From Colwellia maritima (GTDB lineage: Bacteria > Pseudomonadota > Gammaproteobacteria > Enterobacterales > Alteromonadaceae): 64,000 bases of DNA. Both the position numbers and the translations under genes were made by a program. The first letter of the stretch is position 1; each line of letters starts with the position of its first letter. The notes below the pieces were generated by a model. That model was given only the letters and a program-made list of their open reading frames with translations. It did no database searches and was not told the DNA's origin. The stretch lies in contig NZ_JAKKSL010000001.1 of assembly GCF_022669015.1 (NCBI RefSeq), positions 600,059 through 664,058 of the forward strand, given 5' to 3'. Of the stretch, positions 31,016 through 47,937 are shown piece after piece.

Positions 31016-32986
31016 ATGGTAATGGAACCACTTTATTTAGCTATAGGAATTGGCGTACTGTTCGTCTTTTCACTTTTAATTATGTTCGCTAAGTTTTACA
31101 ACAAAGTAGAGCAAGGCCAAGCGCTAATCATTAATAAACTTAGAGCTGAACCAGAAATCAGTACAACAGGCGGAATGGTTATTCCAATAATCCATAAAAA
31201 AGAAGTTATGGATATTTCTACTAAACGCATGATGTTAGAGCGTAAAGGCCGTTCAGGACTTATCTGCCAAGACAATATTCGAGCCGATATTATTATCACC
31301 TTTTATATTCGCGTGAACGAAACTAAAGAAGACATTTTACGTGTTGCTAAGCAAGTGGGTTGTGAACGTTCGTCATTCCCAGAAACATTACAAGAGCTTT
31401 TTGAAGCCAAATTTTCAGAAGCACTTAAAACAGTCGGCAAGCAGTTAAATTTTACTGAACTATTCACACAACGAGACAGATTTAGAGACAAAATTAAAGA
31501 AGTGATAGGTCAAGATCTTTCTGGCTACGTGCTTGAAGATGTTGCGATTGATTTTCTAGAACAAACATCAATAAATGATCTCGATCCAAGTAATATTATG
31601 GATTCAGAAGGGATCAGAAGAATCACTGAATTAACAACGCAACAAAGCGTTGAAACCAATGATTTAAAACGACAAGAAGAAATCCGTATTAAACGTCAAA
31701 ACATAGATGCAGAAGAAAAAACCTTAGAACTTGAACGCCAATTAGCTGATGCCAAAGCGAAACAAGAGCGAGAAATTGCTTCAGTGCAAGCCCGTGAAGA
31801 AGCAGAAACGGCAAAAATTGTTGAAGAAGAGCGCTGTAAATCTGAGCAAGCTAGAATAGCAACCGAGCAAGTAGTTGCGGTAGCCGAAGAAAACAAACAG
31901 CGTGAAGCTGATATCGCATGTCAAAACCGTTTACGTGCCGTTGCCATTGAAGAAGAGAAAGTGATTCGTGCACGCCAAGTGGAAGCCATTGATCGTGAGA
32001 AAGAAGTAGAAACCTTACGTATCGATAAAGAAAAAGCGCTTGAAGTAGAACGCAAAAATATTGCTGAAGTACAACGAGAACGTATTATCGTTGAAAAAGG
32101 AGTGGCAGAAGAGGAAGAACGAATTAAAGACTTACGTGTTGTGTCTGAAGCTAATCGTCAAAAAGACGAACAGGTTATCAAGGCTAAAGGTGAAGCTGAA
32201 GAATTGCTTGTTAAAGACATTGAATCCGCGAAAGCACAAGAACAAGCGGCAGAACATACAGCCAGAAAAATGCAAACTATTGCCGAAGCAGAATTAAAAG
32301 CGGCGAGTAAGCAATCAGAGTCTAAGAAAATTTTGGCTGAAGGTAATCAAGCCGCAGCAGCATCTCAAGGATTAGCAGAAGCACAAATTACCTTAGCGCA
32401 AGCAGATGCACATGAAAGACAAGGTGAAGCCGAAGCCAAAGCACTTGAACTTAAATTGACAGCTGAGGCAAAAGGTATTCAAGAAAAAGCGTTGGCGGAA
32501 GCAACTGGCTTAAGAGAGAAGCAAGAAGTATTAAATGCCATGTCTGAGCAAGCCCGTGAATTCGAAACATTTGGCCTGCGTTTAAATCAAGAGCGTGAAT
32601 TAACACTAGCCAAATTAAATAACAGTGTTGATTTAGCTGAGAAACAAGCAGATGTATTAGCAACGGCCTTAAGTGAAGCCAATATCAACATCATGGGTGG
32701 AGATGGAGAATTCTTACATCAATTTATGAAGTCAATCACTGTGGGTAAGTCACTTGACGGATTAGTAAATGAAAGTGAGACGGTAAAAGCTTTATTTAAA
32801 GAACACTTAAATGGTGAGCGCAATATTATGGACGATCTCCCTGGTGTTATGTCTGGCGCTTCAGTAGCCACAGAAACAATGAAAAACTTCAATATGGCTA
32901 AACTACTGTCAACCTTGAATGAGGCAGATGACACACAAAAAGGTGCACTGGCGAGTTTATTAAATTTGGGTAATAAAAAAACCTAA
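31016..32986 (+). CDS. Flotillin-like SPFH/band-7 protein (YqiK-like) with a long EA-rich coiled coil
   Basis: N-terminal TM and SPFH domain (IINKLRAEPEI...), then about 350 aa of E/A/K-rich heptad repeats. Confidence 0.8.
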   Translation: MVMEPLYLAIGIGVLFVFSLLIMFAKFYNKVEQGQALIINKLRAEPEISTTGGMVIPIIHKKEVMDISTKRMMLERKGRSGLICQDNIRADIIITFYIRVNETKEDILRVAKQVGCERSSFPETLQELFEAKFSEALKTVGKQLNFTELFTQRDRFRDKIKEVIGQDLSGYVLEDVAIDFLEQTSINDLDPSNIMDSEGIRRITELTTQQSVETNDLKRQEEIRIKRQNIDAEEKTLELERQLADAKAKQEREIASVQAREEAETAKIVEEERCKSEQARIATEQVVAVAEENKQREADIACQNRLRAVAIEEEKVIRARQVEAIDREKEVETLRIDKEKALEVERKNIAEVQRERIIVEKGVAEEEERIKDLRVVSEANRQKDEQVIKAKGEAEELLVKDIESAKAQEQAAEHTARKMQTIAEAELKAASKQSESKKILAEGNQAAAASQGLAEAQITLAQADAHERQGEAEAKALELKLTAEAKGIQEKALAEATGLREKQEVLNAMSEQAREFETFGLRLNQERELTLAKLNNSVDLAEKQADVLATALSEANINIMGGDGEFLHQFMKSITVGKSLDGLVNESETVKALFKEHLNGERNIMDDLPGVMSGASVATETMKNFNMAKLLSTLNEADDTQKGALASLLNLGNKKT

Positions 32987-33108: not shown

Positions 33109-36100
33109 ATGGAGACTTACATGACAGATAAGGAAAGTGTCGCCAATCAAGCGGTCGCAGAAGGGGGCTCATATGAGCTTATTAAACGCCGGCTATCCAC
33201 CTTAGGTAGTGATTTAAATACACAAATTAAACAGTTGAATAACGAACGTGTTAACACGTTTGGCTCAACTGATATGAAGGTTGATGCGCGAGTTAGGGTG
33301 CGAACTGAACATAATTGTGTTGCTAGAGATATCGTGGCGATAGGCGATACTTTATTATTTGGATACAACGTTTTTTTAGGCTTAAAACGTAACATCACCG
33401 TTGCAGATGTTTTCAGTCTACATCAAATTCAAGAACAGGAGGGTGAAGTTGATATTGTTGACGTGCCAATGCAGGGGAGTTTTCTAGAACACCCTAATTT
33501 TGTACGCGATTTTGATGAACTGTACACTTACTATAACAAAACTTTTTTAGCACATGTCTATCGGCAAGGCAGCAAGGTTTACGCAATATTCCGTATTGGC
33601 GAACGACTTGATGATATACGAGTGTTTCGATGGGCAATTGATGCTAATCAGCAGGTTACCTATATTGATAATCGTGGTGAACGAGATATAAAACAACCTG
33701 AGAACTTTGATTTTCAATGGCATAAAGTGACTCGAGAGCAACAAGAGCAGGGAAAATATCCGCACTTTAATTTATTTGATACCCTGTTTGTCGAAACAAT
33801 TGGTGGTTCGATTACTTTAAAAGTTGAAAATAATACCGCAGAAGGGCAAGGCATTTATTCAGAGCCTGTTGATGACCCACACCAATCTTTAGATGATGCC
33901 GATATTCGTTATGCCAAAGTTGGCGAACTTATTCTATTAAAAATAAAGCCTTACCGCGAAGACAAAACACGCCATTTAATATTTAATTGTAAAACGCAAC
34001 AAGTGCTTAGACAAGATGCCATCGCCCATGCCTGTATTCAATTACCCGAAGATCACGGTATTATTTTTCCGGGTGGTTATTATCTGCAAAGTGGTGAGCA
34101 TAAGAGTTTTGAAGACAGCGCAGAGGATCTGCAATTACATCGTGTGGCAAAATCTCCTAACGGCGAAGATTTTCTGTATATTTTTTATGAGCCCAATGAA
34201 GGTCAATATGCCTTATTTGGCTATAACTTAATTACCAGAACACTGCAAAATCCAATTTATGGTCATGGGCAAAGTATATATAACAATGGTCGAGCCGTTG
34301 TTTTTAGTGCTGAATCTGAGCCATCGCGTGTTCATGCCATGCAAATATGGCAAACCCCTTTTTGTAGCGAAGAGCATGCCAGTACGCAACCAGTGGATAA
34401 TAGTTTTTTTGGCAAAATTGGTAATCCTGAGTGGTTCGTGGTGTTTCTGACTTATACGGCGTTGTTAAACTGATCACCGTGGAACAACCTAGTGCGCAAC
34501 ATTTTAATGACTTAGTCAAAGAAGCGGCTCAGCTGTTTGATAAATATCACTGGCTTAATGATAAATCATTGGTATCACTTCATGGGCTTATAAAGCAAGT
34601 AGTGACCACGGCTGAATTAGTGTTAGATGAGTTTGAAAAAGTATCTAGCATTAAAGCAAATGCCGATAATGTGATGTCTGGCGCAAAAGAAAAGTTAGCA
34701 AAACTTAGCTTGCACTTGAAACACCCAAGCTTTAACACAGCTAAAGAATATGTCGATAATTTAGCTGAGCTAGCGCAATTTAAAGGTGAATTGATTTCTC
34801 ATAAAGAACTGCGTTATGTGGATGTAGACGAAATCCACACAATGGAAATTAATGTAGATGAGTTAACTAAGCGCCTTAGCCAAGCAACCGCAGACTTTTT
34901 ACAAAAAGACAAAGCGCTAACACCTTATCACGAGACCATTAATGAGTTAGATAAAGCAGTAGAAGCAAGTGAATCGATTACGGCTTTAAAACCTATTCGT
35001 ACGTCCATAGAGTCATTGGTGGCAGGGTTAGATCTACTAAACCACACTATGCTGACGTTAGATATTGAAGACAGTAGACAAAGAACGCGTATTTTAGAAG
35101 ATATTTCAACGGTTTTTAGTCAAATAAACCGTGTTAAAGCAAGTGCAGATATTGCGGCTAAAAACGTCGGCAGTAAAGAAGCGCGGGCTGAATTTGGTGC
35201 AAGGTTTAAACTATTAAGCCAGAGTGTTACAAGTGGTTTAAATGCTAGCGATAGCCCGCAAGCGTGTGATCAGCAGCTGTCTCAACTACTTATTCAATTA
35301 GAAGAGTTAGAAAGCCAATTTAGCGATTATGATGAGTTTTATCAGGAGATTCTCGCTAAACGAGATGAAATATACGATAACTTTGAGCAACATAAACAAC
35401 AGTTAATGGACGCCCAAGCAGCGCCGTTGTTTAAATTTGATGACGGCAGCAACACGTATCATCGAAGGGGTTATTCGTCGTAGTCAATCATTTAATGACC
35501 GAGATAAATTAAACAGTTATTTTTTGGTGACCCAATGGTTGCCAAGCTCAGACAACTTATTGAGCAGTTACGAACGCTTGATGATAATGTGCGCGCTGAT
35601 GACATTGACGCTCAATTGAAAAATGCCAAAGAGCAAGGGATCCGTTCCCTAAGAGATAAAACTGATATCTATTCGGCTGATGGTAGCTTAGTCAAAATTG
35701 GTGAACATCAATTTTCAGTGAATAAACAAAAATTAGAATTAACACTGTTACCGCGTGATCACACCATGGTATTGCATATTAGCGGCAGTGAATATTTTGA
35801 AACCCTTGCACCTGAGTTATTTGCCAATACTGAACACTTATGGCAACAAGAATTGGTGTCTGAATGTGAGAATGTGTATCGCGCAGAATACCTTGCTGCT
35901 ACTATTTTATTTGAAGCTGAAGTGTCAGGTAAAGCAAAGTTAGATAGCCTCAAAGCGGCAGTACAGCAAAATACGTTAGTTGATTTGGTAAGAAAAACGG
36001 CAGAACCATTATACCAAGAAGGTTACGACAAAGGCGTGCACGATGCTGATGCCGCACTAATCTTAACGCAATTATTATCCTTGAAAGAATCAATAGGACT

Positions 36101-38212
36101 ATTAGCTTATCCCGCTCAAGAACGAAGGTTAGCCGTGCTGTTTTTTACAACAGCACTCACAACAACTGAGCGAAATGACTTAATACATCGTTGTCAAAAC
36201 CTGCACTTAATGGAAGAAACATTTGGTAGTGGTCAATTACGACAACAATTAACCAAAGAACTCGCCGCCAAATTGGATAATTATCTTACCAGTCAACCGT
36301 GGTTAGTTTCTGACCCATTATTATCGGCAACCTATTTAGTGTACGAATTGGCATTAGGCGAAAAATTTGTTATTAAAGAAGCGAGTGTTGAATTAGCTGA
36401 ACAGTTAACCAGTCAGCTGAAACAAAAAAGCATAGAAAAGCAAATTAGTAGTGCGTTAGTCCGGTTGTTCTTCCATAGAGCAAAAATATCAACTACATCT
36501 TGCTTGGGTGCAATCATTTGTTAATTATCAGCATATTAGCAACCAATTAGATGTCATTATTGAAGCATCACTGTTTTTAATGATGTCAGATAAATGTGAG
36601 TTTTATACTTCTAACGCGAATACTGATTGTGTGGTGGAAGGACTACTCGGACAGCACACGCAAATTGTAGATAGAAAAATTGCAATTAACTATCAAGCAT
36701 TTATTTCAAAGTTACGTCAATTTAGTAACGAACGTGTTACTGCCTTTAAGAAATTTCATCAAAAGAAACAAAGTGTATTGGACGCACAGCGTAAACGATT
36801 ACGTTTAGAAGAATTCAAACCGAGAGCACTGTCTTCGTTTGTTCGAAATAAGCTGATTAATGATGTATATTTTCCAATTATAGGTACCAATTTAGCGAAA
36901 CAAATTGGTGCAGCAGGTAATAAAAAGCGCTCCGATTTAATGGGATTATTATTACTTATTTCACCGCCAGGTTATGGTAAAACAACCTTAATTGAATATG
37001 TTGCCAGTAAGTTAGGCATGACTTTCGTAAAAATTAATTGTCCCTCTATCGGTCATGATCAATTGTCACTTGACCCAAGCACAAGCTAGTAATTCAACCG
37101 CAGAAAATGAGGTGAAAAAAATCAATTTAGCGTTTGAAATGGGCAACAATGTCATGCTTTATCTTGATGATATTCAACATACTAATCCTGAATTTTTACA
37201 AAAATTCATTTCCCTATGTGATGGTTCAAGAAAGGTTGATGGCGTATTTAATGGTAAAAGCAAAACCTATGATATGCGTGGCAAAAAATTTGCTGTGGTG
37301 ATGGCAGGTAACCCATATACCGAATCGGGCGAAGCCTTTTCTATTCCTGATATGTTAGCCAACCGCGCAGACATTTATAACCTGGGTGATACCTTAAGTG
37401 GTCGTGAGCACGAATTCTCCTTGAGCTTTATTGAAAACAGTTTAACCAGTAACCGTTATATCGCGCCTTTAGCTACCCGAGATATGGATGATCTGTATAA
37501 ATTGGTTCAAATAGCTGACGGAAACCCAATAGCAACAACAGAATTGCAACATGGTTATTCACAAGCTGAAGTAAACGAAATAGTTGCCGTAATTAAGCGA
37601 ATTCGTAAGATTCAAGAAACAGTATTAAAAGCTAATGCCCAATATATAGCTTCTGCTGCACAAGACGATAAATACCGAACAGAGCCACCGTTTAAGTTGC
37701 AAGGTAGTTATCGAAACATGAATAAAATGGCCGAAAAAGTTGTGCCAGTAATGACCGATGAAGAAGTGGAACAACTTATTGCTGATCATTACCGTGGTGA
37801 GGCGCAAACACTTACTGTTGGCGCGGAAGAGAACCTATTGAAATTGGCAGAAATCAGAGGCAATCAAACCGCAGAACAGTTGACGCGTTGGCAACAAATA
37901 AAAGCAGACTATGTACGTCATAAAAATCTGGGTGATAATGACAACCCTATAGCGACAATTGCTAACCAAATATCGTTACTGCAACAAGGGTTGAATCAAA
38001 TTGGACAGGCGTTACAACAGCCTCAATCTGAGGGATTAGCCGCGTTAAATGAAACCCTAGCGAGCCTCAAGCTACAAGTTAATGTTGAAAAACCTGACCA
38101 CTCAGCTTTAGAGCAAGCAATGTCTTCATTTTCTGAACATGTCGACTCATTTTTAACGCCACTTGTAACCGTACTGCAAAGTAATAAAAGTGTTGTCTTT
38201 GGCGTTGGTTAA
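33109..38212 (+). CDS. Giant (~1,700 aa) uncharacterised protein with a C-proximal MoxR/dynein-type AAA+ module. It appears as five frame-shifted ORFs (33109..34473, 34431..35483, 35535..36524, 36508..37089, 37055..38212).
   Basis: Consecutive overlapping ORFs on the same strand have no RBS or gaps between them. Walker A LISPPGYGKTTL, Walker B VMLYLDDIQH and a MoxR-like sensor region FAVVMAGNPYTESGEAFSIPDMLANRADIYNL are present. There are N-terminal beta-rich and central coiled-coil regions. Confidence 0.5.
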
Positions 38213-40244: not shown

Positions 40245-40752
40245 AAATATTCCTAGAAGTATTGATATTGCCACATTGTCTGCCAGTACTGGCGTAAAAG
40301 GCAATCAAATCTTAATGATCAAATCAAAATAATTGTAAATATTAGGTGAATTTATCCCTGTGAAAACCTGATTAATAGCAATATTTTTAGATAAAAAATA
40401 TTGCTATTTCATGTGTGTATGGCATAAAGATACTATTAAACATTTGCTATTAATTAAGATAGCAACAGTAGAAGCTTGTTTTAAAGCAAAGAATGGTTGT
40501 ATTTTTTCCGTCATTATTTTTATTGCTCAAAGGAATAGTAAAGGAAAACTCTGATACTAAATCTTGTTCAAGATGCAATTCAGACATGGTATTGCGAAAA
40601 GCCACTAAAGGTAAAAACGCAGGCAATGAGTTTTTAGGGATGTAGTGCATTTCCTAAATGCAGAAATGTGGTTGAAATTGGTTAGTAAAATTTAGGTTTT
40701 TAATAAAAAAATTCATTGCGCATATTTAGGCTCTGTTAAAAGGAATTGAAAA

Positions 40753-42945
40753 ATGAACAAACTAAGCATTAACTTTGAAAATTGTTACGGTATTAACAAA
40801 CTTGAATATGAATTTGATTCAGAAGAAAGTGGTAGCAGTAAAGGGGTCTATTCCATATACGCACCTAATGGTTTCATGAAAAGTTCATTCGCCAGAGCAT
40901 TTGAAGATGTACAGTTTGGGAAGTTAAGTCGAGATATTGTTTTTCCAGAACGAGAGACAAAAAGGGAAATAATTATTGATGCTGAGAATATAGAGCCTGA
41001 AAGTATTTTTGTCATTAAACCCTACAGTGAAAGTTATAGCTCAGAGAAAACCTCATTACTTCTTGTTAATGAGGAATTGAAAAAAAAATATGATATTGCA
41101 TTAAAAGAGATAGAGCAAAAGAAAGCAGGTTTAATCAAGTCGTTAAAAGAACAATCAGGGATAAAATCCAGAACGGTTTCCGTTGAATCAATACTATGTA
41201 AATCATTCGAAAAAAGTGAAAAGGATCTCTCTGATTTGTTTTCAGAATTGCTCGAATTGACAGATGACTTCTCTCATTTCTCAGGAATAAAGTATGGCGA
41301 TATATTTAACGATAAAGTTATCAAATTTCTTGAGTCAGGCGATTTAAGTAAAGAGCTTGAGGACTATATTCAAACTTATGACACCCTTATTGAAAAATCA
41401 CCTGTATTAACAAGGGAGTTTAATCATCAAAATGCGGTAATCATATCAAAAAGCCTAAAAGATACTGGTTTCTTTGGAGCAGAACATACAGTAAATTTAA
41501 CATTGCCTACAGGAAAGCATGAAGTATCTTCTCAGGAAAAATTGACCCAGTTAATCAAAGAAGAGCAGGATAAAGTAATTACTGATCCTGATTTATTGAA
41601 GAAATTTACTGCTATTGATAAAAAATTAAGTAATGCTGAAACTAAAAAATTCAGAGAGTATATTACTGATCATAAAGATTTATTACCTGAGTTGAAAGAA
41701 TACAGAAAATTTGAGAAAAAACTCTGGATTGCATATTTGCAAAAGCAACCCGAATTCTTGAGAGAGTTTGTAGCAACCTACCAAACCAATAAACAATTGA
41801 TTATAGATATAACTCAAGTCGCGAAAGATGAACAAACAATTTGGCAATCAGTCGTTTCTACTTTTAATAAACGATTTAATGTGCCTTTCAATTTAACAAT
41901 TGAGAATCAAGATGATGTTATTTTACAGAGTGCTTCTCCTACAATTGCTTTTGAATTTGATGATGGACGAGAAAAAAGGGATATTAATAAAACAGATTTA
42001 ATGGATGTTTTAAGTCAGGGAGAGAGAAGGGCTTTATATATACTTAATTTGTTATTCGAAATTGAAGTGAGATTACGGCACACAACGCCAACACTATTTA
42101 TTGTTGATGATATTGCAGATTCATTTGACTATAAAAATAAATATTCTATTGTCGAGTATTTAAAAGTTATAGCAGAGACAAGTTATTTTAAGGTTATTTT
42201 CTTAACTCATAATTTTGATTTTCATAGAACTATTTGCGGTCGTATTGGAATTTATGGAAATAAGCGTTTATTTACGATTAAATCTGACAGTAGAATTAAA
42301 TTTACTCAAGAAAAATATCAAAGAGATGTATTGAATCACTGGAAAACACAACTTCATATAGATATGAAATGTGTTTTGGCCTGCATACCATTTGCTAGAA
42401 ACCTATCTGAATATTGTGGAAACACAGGCGAGTATAATTTGTTAACAGCTCTCCTTCACCTTAAGCCAAATACTGATGATTTAAGGATTTCTGATCTCCA
42501 AACAATTTATCAAAATGTATTCACAGATAAAAGTAATGTTGAATTACCTGCACCTCAAAATCTGATAACTGAACAATTAATGCAGGTAAGTGAAGCTATT
42601 GTTGCAGAGGCCAGTGATGAAGCTCAACTCGAAGATAAAATAGTTCTTTCGATAGCCATAAGACTTGAAGCAGAAAAGTTTATGATACGAAAAATTAACG
42701 ATCAAGGCTTTGTAAATGATATTAGGACTAATCAAACACAAAAGCTCTATGAACGTTTTTGTAATGATTTTGGCGATGAGCAAGAAAGCATAATAGCACT
42801 TGACCAAGTAAACTTAATGACGCCTGAAAACATACATCTTAACTCTTTTATGTACGAACCGATTTTGGATATGTCAGCAATTCATCTATATAAATTATTT
42901 AATGATGTTAAAGCCCTAAATACTTCTGGTAACGACAATGATTAA
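40753..42945 (+). CDS. SMC/RecF-like ABC-type ATPase with a degenerate P-loop, a long coiled-coil insert and a ~250-aa C-terminal extension (candidate defense ATPase)
   Basis: N-terminal head with IYAPNGFMKSS in the Walker-A position, ABC signature LSQGERRAL, Walker B LFIVDDIAD and H-loop IFLTHN. About 350 K/E-rich residues lie between Walker A and the signature. Confidence 0.6.
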   Translation: MNKLSINFENCYGINKLEYEFDSEESGSSKGVYSIYAPNGFMKSSFARAFEDVQFGKLSRDIVFPERETKREIIIDAENIEPESIFVIKPYSESYSSEKTSLLLVNEELKKKYDIALKEIEQKKAGLIKSLKEQSGIKSRTVSVESILCKSFEKSEKDLSDLFSELLELTDDFSHFSGIKYGDIFNDKVIKFLESGDLSKELEDYIQTYDTLIEKSPVLTREFNHQNAVIISKSLKDTGFFGAEHTVNLTLPTGKHEVSSQEKLTQLIKEEQDKVITDPDLLKKFTAIDKKLSNAETKKFREYITDHKDLLPELKEYRKFEKKLWIAYLQKQPEFLREFVATYQTNKQLIIDITQVAKDEQTIWQSVVSTFNKRFNVPFNLTIENQDDVILQSASPTIAFEFDDGREKRDINKTDLMDVLSQGERRALYILNLLFEIEVRLRHTTPTLFIVDDIADSFDYKNKYSIVEYLKVIAETSYFKVIFLTHNFDFHRTICGRIGIYGNKRLFTIKSDSRIKFTQEKYQRDVLNHWKTQLHIDMKCVLACIPFARNLSEYCGNTGEYNLLTALLHLKPNTDDLRISDLQTIYQNVFTDKSNVELPAPQNLITEQLMQVSEAIVAEASDEAQLEDKIVLSIAIRLEAEKFMIRKINDQGFVNDIRTNQTQKLYERFCNDFGDEQESIIALDQVNLMTPENIHLNSFMYEPILDMSAIHLYKLFNDVKALNTSGNDND

Positions 42946-43669
42946 TCAGAAAAAGTTTCGGCCAATTTTGAATGATATTGCAACACGTTCATTTCGAGAT
43001 GTAGCAGATAATGACTATATTACTGCCCGTTTATGTTACATCAATCGTTTATACCCACAATATATTTGGTATTCACAACAAAGCGTTGAAAAATATTTAA
43101 AGGCGATATTGCTGTTTAACATGCAATCAACAAGAAAATTACGCCACAATCTTGAAAAAGCATATGAAAGAATAACTGAACTTATACCAAAGCTTGGAAT
43201 GGAATTATCTGACACGACAGTTAAGTATATTCAGTATTTGGACACTTGGGGGGAGAATAGGTATTTCGAAAAAGCTCATTTCATCTCCCCATGCAATAGA
43301 CTGGATAAACTAGATGAAGCCGTTTGGGAAATTAGGCGTTATTGCAAATATTTTAATAAGAACTATGAAAGCTACAAGCTTGAACTAGAACAGGCTCAAA
43401 AGGCAACATCAGATCAGAAAGTGCAGTTTATAACAAATGGTATTTTAGAGAAGATAATTAATAATGATAATCATATTCATCATTCAATACTTTTAACTTG
43501 TAATAGACACTTTGGTGACTTCTCTGAAGAAGTTCACACGCCACTTCATGCAATAAACCCAACGCAAACTTTACACCCTGAGTATTTCGAAGAACTAAAC
43601 AAGTACATACAGTTTCCAAAAGAAGTTGTTGATACATATAAGGAAATAAATAGCCACGCTGACCTATAG
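42938..43669 (+). CDS. HEPN-like alpha-helical protein (putative RNase effector), translationally coupled to the ATPase
   Basis: ATGATTAA overlap with the upstream stop. Residues 46-72 read SQQSVEKYLKAILLF…TRKLRHNLE, resembling the classical HEPN helix (QQAxEKxLKAxL…R-x-x-x-H). Confidence 0.4.
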   Translation: MINQKKFRPILNDIATRSFRDVADNDYITARLCYINRLYPQYIWYSQQSVEKYLKAILLFNMQSTRKLRHNLEKAYERITELIPKLGMELSDTTVKYIQYLDTWGENRYFEKAHFISPCNRLDKLDEAVWEIRRYCKYFNKNYESYKLELEQAQKATSDQKVQFITNGILEKIINNDNHIHHSILLTCNRHFGDFSEEVHTPLHAINPTQTLHPEYFEELNKYIQFPKEVVDTYKEINSHADL

Positions 43670-44023
43670 CTGAAATATCCTTATATGAGGTTCCTAATTA
43701 CAAATGAGAATTTGCCCCAGATGAGAATTCTGAGAATATTCACATTACCGATAAGATTAACCAATAATAAATAAAAAAATATTGATTAACGATTTTAGAG
43801 TTTGCACTTTACTTGGTTAGATGAATTGCTCCAAAGGGTGCATCTCTTAAATGAATACAGATGCAATTTCTGATAATAATATGATGAATATCTTTGTATC
43901 ATATGCCATACAAGGCTTTCAGCTAAATAACCGTCACAAAATTGATCGACTTCATTAGAAGCGCTCTCGCTCAATATTGGAATGATAAACCCGAAATAAT
44001 CACATAATAATAGCCCTTTCTTG

Positions 44024-44042
44024 CAACCGACCAATCGGTTTG
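44024..44042. promoter_or_regulatory. Palindromic operator-like site ACCGA-N4-TCGGT (copy 1) upstream of the TetR gene
   Basis: CAACCGACCAATCGGTTTG, 47 bp upstream of the ATG at 44089. Confidence 0.4.
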
Positions 44043-44088
44043 TTAATATTCAAACGTAAAATATTGTTAATTCTAAGAGTCTTAAATC

Positions 44089-45505: not shown

Positions 45506-47937
45506 TTATCTAGCGATACTCTGTAAAACTTCAATTGACACTAAGTTAGTGACAGACGATTTCAGTTCATCCATTGTAGAACAAACAACAAGTAAACCTT
45601 CGTCATTCAAGGTCATATAACCCTGCTCTCGTAGTGTATTAATTAACGTGGCCTGTGCTTTTTTATCAATAAATTCTGGCGCAGTAATATTGTTTAATAC
45701 GGCTAAGCGCTTAGCAATAGCCACAACTTTCTCCTCTAATTCTCGTCTTGAAAGCGGTGCTAAACGTGTCGCTAATGAGGTGATGATTGCTAACCTTTGT
45801 AGGCTTTCATCAATACATTCCGCGAGTAAATGTACTTGATTAAGCTGAGGAGTATTATCGATTAAAGACCAAAAATTTGCTTTGGTTTGCTTAATGACAC
45901 CGTTGCCTTCTAATGCTATCAGTAAACTTTCAACTTGCTGTGTAATTTGCTGAGGTGTTTGCCACAGAAATAAGTCTGTTTTTAGGGTTTTCAATAAACT
46001 AATTGTTTGGGAAATTATTTTCTCATGAGATATTTTGCTGTTATGTGTCAATAACCTACATACTAAAGAACTTAATGCGTAAGTGTGCAATATATTATTA
46101 CGGTAATAACGCATTTCTAAACTAGCAGAATCATCAAGTGAAATAATGGTACCAAAACTGTCTTGACACAGGGTTACCTTGTTGAGAGAAATAACATGTT
46201 CAAGTAATTCAGCTCCGTTTTCTTCTGGTATAGTTAAATGTTCACTGTAGGGTGCTTCACGCTGAATAGTCAGGAAAAAATCTAAGTGTTTTTCAAGGTC
46301 AGCCTTAGCTAGCGCTTTGTTTTCGCAAGCATGTAAAATTAAGGCAACCAACGCCACACCGTTCAATGCAGCGCATTGGTTAATGCGGGTCATTAACTGA
46401 TTTGATATTTCGTTAACGGTAGGTGTTAACCAATTCGGCTTTTGTGGATCAAATGGGTCTATGGCTTCTTTCCACTTGGTACTTTCTCGTTTAAATAACT
46501 ATTAATATTGATAGGGTCGCCGAAGTTTACATAGCCATTACCATAATTTCGTAAGCTTTTAATTGCTTTTAACACGCCAAAAATAGATTCGTTTTTCTTG
46601 GCGCTACCGCTTAACTCTTTATGATAGGTGCCTACTTCCATGACATGTTCATAGCCTAAATACACAGGAACTAAGGTTAATGGGCGATCTATTCCGCGCA
46701 GAAGGCTTTGAATGGTCATTACTAACATGCCTGTTTTTGGCGGTAATAACCTACCTGTGCGACTTCTTCCACCTTCGGTATAATATTTAACGGAATAACC
46801 ACGTTCAAATAATAAGCTTAGGTATTCACGAAAAATAGTAGAATATAAACGGTTGCCAAGCAAAGCTTCGGCGGATAAAAAAGGCACCACCTTTTCTAAA
46901 AATGGTGCCTGCCGGCCAGAAATTTAGGTTAATACCGGCTATACGTGGCATAACTAAACCTTCTTGAATAATGACATAAGAAAGTAATAAGTAATCCATG
47001 TGGCTTCTATGGCAAGGTACATAGATAATTTCGTGACCGTCTTGTGCTAATTTTCTTAATACTTGTGAATTGTTGACTTTTATATTGGTATATAAACGCC
47101 CCCATAGCCGCCTTAAAAAGCGTTCCCCTAAACGAACTAATGAAACGCTATAATCGCCCGCTATTTCATCCATCATAGCAAAGGCTTGTTTTTTGACTTT
47201 ATCAGTACTGATATTTTTATTTTTGGCTTCATCTTTAATAATGCGTTTTACCGTGGGTTAGCGAATAAAGCGGTAAACATTTGTTGGCGATGAAGTAGTC
47301 GCGGCCCCTTGGCTGCAATGTTTTGACGATGAAAATGAAAACGCGCCACACGCAGTAACTTGTGAGCGGTTGCTTCGTTATTTCCGTGATTATCAGACAT
47401 TATTCTTAATGAGAGTGCTTCGCTATAACGAATTAAGTTATCGCGACCGAGAAAGAGAACTATAAAGAATTTTCTTAGCCAAGTAGGGGAAGCTTGCTCG
47501 GCTAATAAAGAGGAAACATTAGCGTTGTTTTTTTCTTGTGTTGGTATGCGCCCCCAAATAAGATTAACGGGGATAAGTTGTGCATCAAGGGTTTTGTTAT
47601 TGTGATGTTGATTGAGAATTTCTAACCCTTGCTGTAGTGCTTTAGTTTTACCGCGTTTTAAGCCAAGAATCGATGTAGGTTTGGCTAAACATAAAGTGCG
47701 ATCAAATAGCGTGTTGTTTATTTTTACCTTGCTTAACGGATCAGGCAGTTTTTGTTGTTTACATGCCTTTTGCAAGGCAAGCAAATCACTAGCTGACTGA
47801 TGGCTGATAACATAAAAAATGGGTTTTGATGCTGTTTCAACGGGCGTTTGTGCATCTAGCACTATTTTGCTACGAACAAATAAACGTAGAGGAAGTTTCA
47901 ATAAAAAGTAAAAAGAAGAACGCAGTACAGATGTCAT
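45506..47937 (-). pseudogene. plsB: Glycerol-3-phosphate acyltransferase PlsB, fragmented by at least 3 frameshifts (ORFs 47248..47937, 46826..47176, 46459..46890, 45506..46393)
   Basis: The four ORFs are colinear with E. coli PlsB, including the HXXXXD motif region [15 protein letters not shown] and [10 protein letters not shown]. Confidence 0.85.

Follow-up and report, generated by a model that had tools for sequence, protein, structure and literature searches.

Do the two overlapping, AT-rich genes at this locus of Colwellia maritima form a single anti-phage system, in which an ATPase senses infection and a HEPN protein responds to it, or are they two separable genes that share an islet? 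An earlier note on this DNA, made from the sequence alone, had taken the first view and had regarded the system as previously undescribed. Our analysis of the window (the whole 64,000-nucleotide stretch of DNA) indicates that it probably holds a two-gene defence islet assembled from parts of known kinds, and that the two genes are probably not an obligate pair.

A low-GC islet of two overlapping genes

An ORF check found both reading frames intact on the forward strand and exactly where they had been placed before, one of 730 aa at 40753..42945 and one of 243 aa at 42938..43669, each with an ATG start. As also previously read, they overlap by the 8 nt ATGATTAA (42938..42945, +), in which the stop of the ATPase gene encloses the start of the HEPN gene; with the HEPN start in this position, the two genes are likely to be translationally coupled. 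Upstream of the ATPase gene lies an AT-rich intergenic region (40305..40752, +), the presumed promoter as read from the sequence, with an AGGA ribosome-binding site at 40741-40744, 8 nt 5' of the ATG. Sigma-70-like matches in 40305..40752 were weak and did not exceed chance expectation. The only neighbours of the HEPN gene in the window are the ATPase gene upstream and, downstream, a second AT-rich intergenic region of 419 bp (43670..44088, +) with a weak terminator-like hairpin at 44025-44040; promoter and terminator scans of the pair's flanks gave nothing better than chance. A 79-aa ORF on the reverse strand downstream of the HEPN gene (43795-44034) looks spurious by eye. The flanks carry no att-like direct repeats, transposon-like inverted repeats or tRNA genes, and the upstream and downstream flanks share no terminal repeats.

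The low GC content described earlier is readily seen: GC is 32.0% in the pair and averages 37.0% over the window (s.d. 2.1, 2.9-kb windows), the pair having the lowest value in the window, and none of the non-overlapping 2.9-kb stretches is as low. The neighbours named in the earlier note (a GNAT plus CN-hydrolase protein, TetR and MlaC) were likewise identified, and no restriction-modification (R-M) genes lie near the pair in the window. Those Colwellia genomes in which the GNAT-nitrilase gene recurs (93% protein identity) are non-syntenic on both sides and gave no empty-site comparison, and a search returned no record for the flanking TetR protein. In other bacteria a two-gene unit of 72% DNA identity sits inside an island of Type III R-M, SNF2, DUF4391 and GmrSD genes. 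Because the low GC coincides with the presence of the same two-gene unit in a wholly different setting, the locus looks horizontally acquired, as expected of the defence-type insert that had been proposed. Homology to L081, a locus of this kind, covers the two genes only and ends at 43652. Compared with L091, which also carries the pair, the coding DNA is ~99% identical, the upstream flank 89% and the downstream flank 78% with 8 gaps. Both genes are under purifying selection, with a dN/dS of ~0.09 for the ATPase and a pN of 0.19 against a pS of 0.75 (pS being saturated) for the HEPN gene, each measured against L081.

A HEPN protein and an ATPase with a possible HEPN-type domain

The 730-aa protein (40753..42945, +) is an ABC (SMC/Rad50/AAA_13-like) ATPase of the PDC-S46 family, whose PADLOC profile it matches over essentially its full length (E = 6.1e-264, 876 bits; residues 1-722 on profile positions 1-718 of 719), so that the description of it as new has to be given up. 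Judged by this match, the locus holds an already catalogued ATPase family that is itself a computational candidate. The earlier note had accepted that a match of both genes to a named defence system would speak against it; for the ATPase there is such a match, but PDC-S46 is only an unvalidated candidate system, one of 145 computational candidates of Payne et al. (bioRxiv 10.1101/2024.01.29.577857), and it is mentioned neither in the literature searched nor in the supplements of that preprint. The protein also matches phrog_38705 (E = 8e-191). Beyond PDC-S46, PADLOC returned only a weak match to mad8 (E = 1.6e-4), and NCBIfam gave sub-threshold matches to RecF and ABC transporters only. The Pfam SMC_N score is under the cutoff (24 bits), and the ATPase itself has no AAA_13 match at E ≤ 1, while four of the eight relatives scanned exceed the AAA_13 cutoff (40-45 bits against 36). 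Sequence searches of solved structures, with the single sequence and with a profile, found nothing useful, the best hit of the ATPase being MetN at E ~0.02.

PDC-S46 is large and widely spread, with more than 5,600 relatives in a word-filtered search and ~1,200 representatives at 50% identity in an exhaustive one, reaching from Proteobacteria to CPR bacteria and archaea. A housekeeping role of the SMC, RecN or SbcC kind was considered and rejected: the likeness to these proteins is confined to the ATPase head (E ~1e-5), the spread is patchy, and the contexts are R-M and mobile ones. The reading as a phage gene was also rejected, since carriage by phages is rare (one GenBank phage record, with 10 IMG/VR contigs bearing the ATPase, 4 bearing the HEPN gene and none bearing both).

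In agreement with the earlier assignment, the head of the ATPase is of the SMC/Rad50 ABC type by Pfam and by Foldseek, which matched the AF2 model (mean pLDDT 82) to SMC/Rad50 heads, LmuB and PtuA, with GajA also among the matches. The N-terminal half of the head (residues 1-98; 40753..41046, +) is modelled as beta strands over residues 3-88 with a helix at 41-54. It carries an atypical Walker A, on which the earlier note was silent, reading Y-A-P-N-G-F-M-K-S-S, with no glycine before the lysine and with A37, N39, G40, K43 and S45 invariant. The C-terminal half (residues 376-519; 41878..42309, +) contains LSQGE (420-424), the Walker B aspartates D452-D453, the D-loop and the H-loop histidine H486. 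All three motifs reported before were found here, namely LSQGERRAL (420-428), LFIVDDIAD (448-456) and LTHN (484-487), and S421, Q422, G423, E424, D452, D453 and H486 do not vary among 78 relatives; weak RecF and MetN matches fall on residues 411-519. Between the two halves lies a helical insert (residues ~99-375; 41047..41877, +), modelled as a short stalk (helices 107-135 and 333-359) with a lower-confidence helical apex (pLDDT 56-77 over residues 190-300). What had been taken for a coiled coil of ~350 aa is thus a mostly helical insert of ~275 aa, composed in the model of many short helices and a small beta-hairpin rather than a long SMC-type coiled coil. The AAA_13 matches of relatives span this region. 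Its translation holds no CxxC zinc hook and one conserved cysteine, C149, which is outside the invariant list of the 78-sequence alignment.

The C-terminal extension exists as described, but it comprises ~210 aa (residues 520-730; 42310..42942, +) and not ~250. It is modelled as all helical with pLDDT above 90, and it appears to be a HEPN-like, RNase-type domain, a putative nuclease or effector that the earlier note missed; with its own domain of this kind, the ATPase would be self-contained as in PrrC/RloC. Twelve positions are invariant in it (R549, N550, Y554, H569, K571, E627, K629, R637, E641, Q661, T662 and N687), as is the stretch 690-TPENIHLNSFMYEPILD-706 across 78 sequences. A canonical Rx4-6H is missing, since no arginine precedes the invariant H569 or H695 at a distance of 4-6 residues. 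Pfam searches of 21 C-terminal domains (E ≤ 10) gave no consistent family, and Foldseek with the domain alone found nothing significant in the PDB. A derivation of this domain and the neighbouring HEPN family one from the other was rejected, the two being unrelated by hhalign (probability 0.1%).

The 243-aa protein (42938..43669, +) is a classical HEPN protein (PF05168) with a core at residues ~15-140 followed by a C-terminal region of ~100 aa. Its HEPN-like character, suspected before from one helix, is confirmed by Pfam (40.4 bits, where the cutoff is 22; E = 3.7e-10; residues 21-103 aligned to profile positions 6-82 of 117), and most of its relatives are also annotated PF05168. Half of the R66/H70 motif singled out earlier withstands the family alignment: H70 is invariant, together with E51-x3-K55, but R66 is not conserved, the position at -4 of H70 (R66-x3-H70) being mostly K in relatives, sometimes T or N. 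Since the basic residue stands at -4 (Rx3H), the spacing is not the canonical Rx4-6H. A search of solved structures with the HEPN profile reached ST0689, a classical HEPN protein, at E = 0.67, and its catalytic histidine aligns with H70. No PADLOC model matches this protein.

Independent assortment of the two genes

The two families were then compared by their genomic neighbourhoods. A HEPN relative is present in one of 80 genome loci of the ATPase, where it is not adjacent, and in none of 10 viral ones, and it is missing even beside ATPase relatives of 65-70% identity in the same backbone. No conserved co-directional neighbour of the ATPase exists among the 80 genome loci, in keeping with PDC-S46 as a single-gene system without an obligatory partner. 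Across many phyla the family often adjoins or lies inside R-M systems; its neighbourhoods include Type I and Type III R-M genes, Mrr, nSTAND3, IS elements and integrases, and in loci L001, L008, L013, L183-186 and L201-203 the ATPase stands between DUF4391 and the Type III Mod gene. PrrC, which resides inside a Type I R-M locus, offers a parallel for this embedding (PMC3710099).

Similarly, the HEPN gene is found without the ATPase. Relatives of 57-64% identity are preceded by Gabija, by Kiwa or by an Mks-like cluster; in L181, for example, this cluster lies on one side of the gene and PifA on the other, and R-M genes are absent. In Marinobacter, and in a prophage-like region of Yersinia, the gene is solitary. 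At 80 metagenome loci of more distant HEPN relatives there was neither an ATPase nor a recurrent neighbour, and the viral loci scanned held no ATPase. In L180 only ~55 nt from the 3' end of the ATPase gene survive its replacement, and the HEPN ORF is intact. In L081, L084, L180 and L201-203 the HEPN stop either overlaps the start of the following gene or lies directly against it, that gene being a Type III Mod gene where identifiable. An ATPase sensor with a HEPN effector, which the earlier note had put forward, finds no support here as the defining architecture.

On balance, we lean towards an islet of two separable genes, a PrrC/RloC-like ATPase and an independent HEPN protein, both of them probably anti-phage. 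The probable source of the islet is the variable 'embedded cassette' slot of an island with Type III R-M, SNF2, DUF4391 and GmrSD genes, a type present in related marine gammaproteobacteria, and the two genes of the islet would be co-transcribed. In the product of the first gene, the SMC/Rad50-like ABC head, interrupted by a helical insert, and the C-terminal domain of apparent HEPN fold would together act as a self-contained sensor and effector. Dimerisation of the heads, dependent on NTP, would hold the C-terminal domains silent until a phage cue shifts the state of the ATPase; candidate cues that we infer include abnormal DNA, an anti-restriction protein and the breakdown of an R-M system to which the gene is linked. 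The HEPN-like domains could then come together as an active RNase and cleave tRNA or mRNA, and the resulting stop in translation would amount to abortive infection. The second gene, by analogy with HepS, most likely provides an independent second defence of the RNase-type abortive-infection or toxin-like kind.

The strongest case for a different answer comes from the pairing itself, which could reflect an obligate two-gene system in which the ABC ATPase senses infection and activates the HEPN RNase, at least in a two-gene sub-clade. The pair, with the identical 8-nt overlap, is conserved in all four lineages whose ATPases are at least 72% identical (the window, L091, L081-83 and L201-203), so that no relative at that level lacks the HEPN gene; the two genes seem to have moved as one unit, as the homology to L081 spans exactly the pair; and ATPase-effector pairs are frequent in defence (Septu, PARIS, Gabija, HEC-01 to HEC-03). 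Yet the pairing is limited to this sub-clade, inside which a functional partnership may exist. The absence of HEPN from all but one of the 80 genome loci and from every one of the 10 viral loci, the intact close HEPN relatives behind other systems, the retention by the ATPase of every invariant residue of its own HEPN-like domain and the single-gene PADLOC model all argue against an obligate pair, which we consider unlikely. Another possibility, rather unlikely in our judgement, is that the C-terminal domain of the ATPase is a non-catalytic sensor or binding module of HEPN-like fold, inactive as an RNase, and that the ATPase acts on DNA like SMC, Rad50 or Lamassu-type proteins or signals to other effectors. 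Against this reading, R549-N550, H569, K571, R637, E641 and the TPENIHLNSFMYEPILD loop are invariant in 78 sequences from many phyla, and polar and charged conservation of this sort is more typical of an active site than of a binding surface. Moreover, R549-N550-x-x-E/D553 resembles the essential R320-N321-x-x-E324 of PrrC, and most family members have no partner effector gene.

Two further readings turn on what surrounds the HEPN gene. It might be a portable 'tail-end' module behind unrelated cassettes, a shared backup RNase or failure sensor with PDC-S46, Gabija, Kiwa or an Mks-like cluster upstream and Type III Mod or PifA downstream, in which case it would be a novel sort of accessory serving several systems and no stand-alone toxin; the PDC-S46 proteins, a very large family with a non-canonical active site, would then be ABC-HEPN RNases guarding Type III R-M as PrrC guards Type I. 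We regard this, in all its parts, as quite unlikely. Least probable to us is that the HEPN gene belongs to the Type III R-M backbone, as a Mod-coupled regulator or backup effector, and is a remnant with no independent role in the window. Its junction with the next gene in the loci named above, the constancy of HEPN-Mod beside a varying 5' slot (PDC-S46, Gabija, Kiwa) and the frequent linkage of HEPN genes to R-M operons (PMC3710099) would suit such a role. Against it, the L181 gene has the Mks-like cluster and PifA as its neighbours and lacks R-M genes, ATPase-bearing backbones that lack HEPN work with the same Mod/Res genes, distant HEPN relatives stand alone, and the HEPN ORFs of the window and L091 are intact (98% protein identity) with no R-M genes nearby. 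The HEPN gene, which no PADLOC model covers, recurs where exchanged defence cassettes meet the Type III mod gene and is a candidate new single-gene defence; these junction loci make a concrete case for cassette exchange within 'embedded' defence islands.

Comparison with known systems

Septu PtuAB, PARIS AriAB, Gabija GajAB and Lamassu share with this locus an SMC/Rad50-type ABC head and the order of an ATPase followed by a putative nuclease gene. Their partners, however, are of the HNH, TOPRIM or Cap4 type, whereas the partner here is a HEPN protein that is not conserved with the ATPase; PADLOC found no match to the Septu, PARIS, Gabija, Lamassu or Wadjet models, and the cognate partners (HNH, TOPRIM, UvrD helicase, LmuA, JetABD) are absent.

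The 243-aa protein shares PF05168 and the E-x3-K and His motifs with HepT of the HEPN-MNT (HepT/MntA) systems, but HepT is about half its size, and no adjoining MNT antitoxin gene was found in the window or the contexts examined, nor a recurrent small partner at the 80 metagenome loci. Like the 243-aa protein, HepS and HEC-08 (a DUF3644 HEPN) are small stand-alone HEPN proteins of variable or prophage regions; they act as partnerless infection-sensing RNases. HepS of the Gifsy-1 prophage, for example, a HEPN protein that works singly in abortive infection, both detects the phage and cuts tRNA (PMC13043305). There is no detectable sequence similarity to either, the protein here being of the PF05168 type with [R/K]x3H and its own C-terminal region.

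The ATPase has in common with PDC-S46 the full-length HMM match, a single-gene arrangement in most genomes and R-M adjacency or embedding, the feature by which PDCs were originally found. The window copy differs in not being embedded in a defence system and in having an extra coupled HEPN gene outside the PADLOC model. The APECO1_4465 and ERFG_01251 groups of Anantharaman et al. (2013), ABC-HEPN fusions of mobile islands, prophages and R-M neighbourhoods (PMC3710099), join an ABC domain to a C-terminal HEPN, as the ATPase appears to do, a comparison made by description only; their Rx4-6H is reported to be conserved, and the PDC-S46 family lacks it.

PrrC and RloC provide a further parallel. 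The order of ABC head, helical insert and C-terminal domain, apparently of HEPN fold here, is the same, the recurrent R-M embedding of PDC-S46 relatives recalls that of PrrC, and relatives of the ATPase pass the threshold of AAA_13, the PrrC/RloC ATPase family. The essential PrrC residues K46, D215, D216 and H251, with their 'DD ... H' arrangement (PMC3025547), correspond in kind to K43, D452-D453 and H486, and in addition to R549-N550-x-x-E/D553 the R637-x3-E641 of the ATPase resembles the PrrC R320 motif. The differences are also clear: the nuclease domains have no detectable sequence similarity, R349...H356 of PrrC (Rx4-6H) has no equivalent, nor is there an Arg-Glu-His triad spaced as in PrrC, the CxxC zinc hook of RloC is absent from the insert, PrrC has 396 aa against 730, a glycine is missing ahead of the Walker A lysine, AAA_13 does not match the window protein, and PrrC is R-M-embedded while the window copy is not. 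If the C-terminal domain proves to be a HEPN-type RNase, the principle known from PrrC/RloC, in which an ABC ATPase restrains a suicidal RNase, often within an R-M locus, would extend to PDC-S46, a very large family of computational defence candidates that would be much broader and older; it would be linked there to R-M of Type III in addition to Type I, and would employ a non-canonical active site.

The gene pair and its surroundings

The two genes lie at 40753..42945 (+ strand, 730 aa, the ATPase) and 42938..43669 (+ strand, 243 aa, the HEPN protein), exactly where an earlier note on this DNA had placed them, and are joined by the 8-nt stop/start overlap that it had described (ATGATTAA), with an AGGA ribosome-binding site 8 nt upstream of the ATPase ATG. 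The note had also remarked on a low GC content. Indeed, the pair has a GC content of 32.0% versus a window mean of 37.0% (sd 2.1, same-size windows); it is the lowest-GC 2.9-kb stretch in the window, and its base composition is foreign. The neighbours were likewise found as stated, with a gene for a GNAT + CN-hydrolase (GNAT-nitrilase) protein on one side and TetR and MlaC genes on the other. In comparison with L081, a locus carrying the same pair, dN/dS is ~0.09 for the ATPase, while pN is 0.19 for the HEPN gene with pS saturated; both genes are subject to purifying selection. The ATPase coding sequence contains an A9 homopolymer (window 41080-41088, codons K110-K112), a potential slippage or phase-variation tract, despite which the pair is unbroken. 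In the intergenic DNA separating the ATPase from the GNAT-nitrilase gene, the two 15-bp arms of a perfect inverted repeat stand 5 nt apart (AATAGCAATATTTTT agata AAAAATATTGCTATT, window 40374-40408); this element is possibly an operator, or a terminator working in both directions.

DNA homology to L081 is restricted to window 40736-43652, that is, to the two genes. A 3.5-kb metagenomic contig, L091, also has this pair, and its immediate flanks are the same. Between window 40497-44039 and L091 1-3547 coding DNA is ~99% identical (dS 0.044 for the ATPase and 0.014 for the HEPN gene), and the intergenic flanks are 89% identical upstream and 78% downstream. Possibly the cassette is of more recent date than the DNA around it, or recombination has exchanged it. 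The GNAT + CN-hydrolase flank protein is 93% identical to a protein of unclassified Colwellia, which marks the host as Colwellia-like; the Colwellia genomes sharing it show no synteny at the pair's site, so that no empty site could be demonstrated in them, and no terminal repeats or tRNA genes were found at the borders of the pair. As a defence islet the locus is ordinary. In the ATPase family at large, most neighbours are parts of R-M systems (Type I S/R/M, Type III Mod/Res, Eco57I, Mrr and DpnII), with nSTAND3, IS21 and integrases also among them.

Two other long genes in the window appear in pieces. A DUF3686 / DUF7902 / AAA 'DNA repair ATPase' gene (33109-38212, + strand) is split into five overlapping ORF fragments, and a 2.4-kb gene that is plsB-like by sequence appearance (45506-47937, - strand) into four. 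Because only some of the fragment junctions of both genes fall at homopolymer runs, real pseudogenisation and assembly indels are indistinguishable here. A 656-aa ORF directly upstream of the DUF3686 ATPase gene (31016-32986, + strand) has no Pfam or PADLOC match, and the two may form a conserved two-gene unit.

Family and fold of the two proteins

The ATPase was proposed to be part of a previously undescribed system, and for this gene the proposal must be withdrawn: PADLOC-DB v2 returned a full-length match to PDC-S46 (E = 6e-264), which assigns it to a family already known as a defence candidate. PDC systems are 145 computational 'phage defence candidates' (Payne et al., bioRxiv 10.1101/2024.01.29.577857), and it was their position inside BREX, DISARM or Type I R-M loci that led to their identification (bioRxiv 10.1101/2024.01.29.577857); no mention of the name PDC-S46 was found in the papers or supplements searched. 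In PHROGs the protein matches phrog_38705, a family without assigned function. The PDC-S46 family is very large, with >5,600 matches in a word-filtered search, and relatives at 39-69% identity occur in Proteobacteria, Bacteroidota, Firmicutes, CPR bacteria, Cyanobacteria and one archaeon, a spread across phyla such as a mobile defence gene would be expected to show.

In an AlphaFold2 model (mean pLDDT 82) the ABC head is split, a helical insert is present and the C-terminal domain is entirely helical. The ABC motifs read from the sequence are present, with key residues invariant across 78 relatives. The supposed coiled-coil insert is modelled as ~275 aa of bundled helices, most of them short (residues ~99-375), instead of as a long coiled coil of SMC type, and the C-terminal extension exists at ~210 aa rather than ~250 aa. 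Foldseek with the model found SMC, Rad50 and condensin heads (E ~1e-5) and then the defence ATPases LmuB and PtuA. Of eight relatives scanned, four pass Pfam AAA_13, to which PrrC belongs. The Walker B 'DD' followed by the H-loop His matches the arrangement in PrrC, in which D215, D216 and H251 are essential (PMC3025547). Walker A is atypical, reading A-P-N-G-F-M-K-S-S, without a glycine preceding the lysine.

The C-terminal domain has no Pfam family, no significant Foldseek match and no profile similarity to the neighbouring 243-aa HEPN family. An exhaustive profile search found it in 1,228 representatives, nearly always C-terminal in ~720-aa proteins, and it is specific to the ATPase's own family. 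The only plausible Foldseek matches were SsR10 and HepT (TM about 0.5, non-significant), both HEPN proteins. In another match list for the domain, AbiA, RnlA, LsoA, Las1 and HepS stand at lower ranks. Accordingly, a layout like that of PrrC and RloC, in which an ABC ATPase is followed by a C-terminal HEPN-fold domain (PMC3710099), is moderately supported for the ATPase. Invariant polar residues of the domain include R549-N550-x-x-E/D553-Y554, H569, K571 and R637-x3-E641, along with the stretch 690-TPENIHLNSFMYEPILD-706. The canonical Rx4-6H motif was not found in it; H695 lies in the loop preceding the last long helix, which would be roughly the usual site of the HEPN catalytic His. This HEPN-fold assignment concerns a very large family that is uncharacterised, and may merit experiments.

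The smaller protein had been called HEPN-like, and it passes Pfam HEPN PF05168 at 40.4 bits against a cutoff of 22, so we class it, from its sequence, as a HEPN protein of that family. E51-x3-K55, the HEPN helix-2 motif, and H70 are invariant across its family. Of the two residues that the earlier note had picked for mutation, H70 and R66, the latter is not conserved in the family alignment; the basic residue is at -4 from the His rather than -5 to -7, and is not invariant. The family profile matches a single PDB entry, the classical HEPN protein ST0689, with the alignment falling on its His (E = 0.67). No PADLOC model matches the 243-aa protein or 22 relatives.

Pairing of the ATPase and HEPN genes

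Searching the ATPase loci with an HMM built for the HEPN family gave a relative in only one of 80 genome loci (L052, about 1 kb downstream and non-adjacent) and in none of 10 viral loci. No recurring co-directional neighbour of the ATPase was found in the 80 genome loci. Conversely, neither the ATPase nor any recurring neighbour occurs in 80 metagenome loci that encode HEPN relatives (32-41% identity). The Marinobacter and Yersinia HEPN copies are solitary, and the region around the Yersinia copy resembles a prophage or satellite. In Marinobacter pelagius (L086 6001-8691) a 126-aa ORF and then a 438-aa AAA_15/AAA_21-type ABC ATPase come after a distant HEPN relative, which places an ABC ATPase of a family other than PDC-S46 near the same HEPN family.

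Close relatives share a backbone of BrxR, HKD/SNF2 helicase, DUF4391, a slot, Type III Mod, Type III Res and a GmrSD-like gene, the Type III genes being recognised by PADLOC (MTase_III E = 3e-207, REase_III E = 0). The slot holds the ATPase alone in L001, L183/184 and L185/186 (68-69% ATPase identity to the window) and in L008 and L013 (46-47%), these ATPase-only slots including Colwellia polaris and Thalassotalea loyana. In L081-83 and L201-203 (72% identity) it holds the ATPase and HEPN genes with the identical 8-nt overlap, and in other loci Gabija GajA/GajB or Kiwa KwaA/KwaB together with the HEPN gene. The island spans 1856-15970 in L184 and is also present in L001, L081, L084, L180, L185 and L201, with BrxR a WYL protein. 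PMC8259958 describes Type III systems that have an additional helicase, and the island is possibly one of these. No relatives of SNF2, DUF4391, Mod or Res are encoded within the window. The HEPN gene also occurs outside the backbone, between an Mks-like cluster and PifA: L181 1-8906 reads BrxR, DUF7281, a 982-aa protein (weak AriA-like match), a 452-aa protein, MksE, HEPN and PifA (KAP NTPase), apparently an Mks/Wadjet-like cluster whose 3′ end carries a member of this HEPN family. Both the Type III R-M embedding of PDC-S46 and this recurrent 'tail-end' HEPN gene are possibly worth experiments.

The Kiwa locus (L180 5945-6000; compare L081 5945-6000 and window 42880-42937) keeps, ahead of the HEPN start, ~55 nt of the ATPase 3′ end, which records a swap of cassettes within the island. 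Because this remnant survives, the ATPase-HEPN junction is ancestral in that lineage, and the HEPN ORF is unbroken there after replacement of the ATPase. The two-gene module of the earlier note therefore holds in part: the pairing is real, and limited to a shallow sub-clade at ATPase identity of at least 72%, but the genes assort independently. The main rival reading is that within that sub-clade they form an obligate sensor-effector pair; the conserved overlap leaves room for it, but both the independent assortment and the ATPase's own intact HEPN-like domain speak against it.

Proposed mechanism and relation to known systems

The data above show foreign composition, family membership, folds, gene contexts, selection and independent assortment; we infer from there a defence function for both genes, acting separately, along with RNase activity, trigger and target. 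The ATPase most likely acts like PrrC/RloC. The fused RNase of HEPN type would be controlled through NTP-dependent head dimerisation and released by a phage cue, such as an anti-restriction factor or breakdown of a linked R-M system; it would then cut tRNA or mRNA and bring about abortive infection. The copy in the window would act autonomously, like RloC. The 243-aa HEPN protein most likely acts alone as a second RNase-type defence. In HepS, one HEPN protein senses phage and cleaves tRNA (PMC13043305); a relationship of HepS to the 243-aa protein is not detectable. Nor is the latter a HEPN-MNT module, no MNT antitoxin gene being found adjoining its gene. The ATPase is not filed in the PrrC/RloC family because their active-site motif was not found in it and it has no zinc hook like that of RloC. 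Its architecture is nevertheless like theirs, and its R-N-x-x-E recalls R320-N321-x-x-E324 of PrrC, which is essential (PMC3025547).
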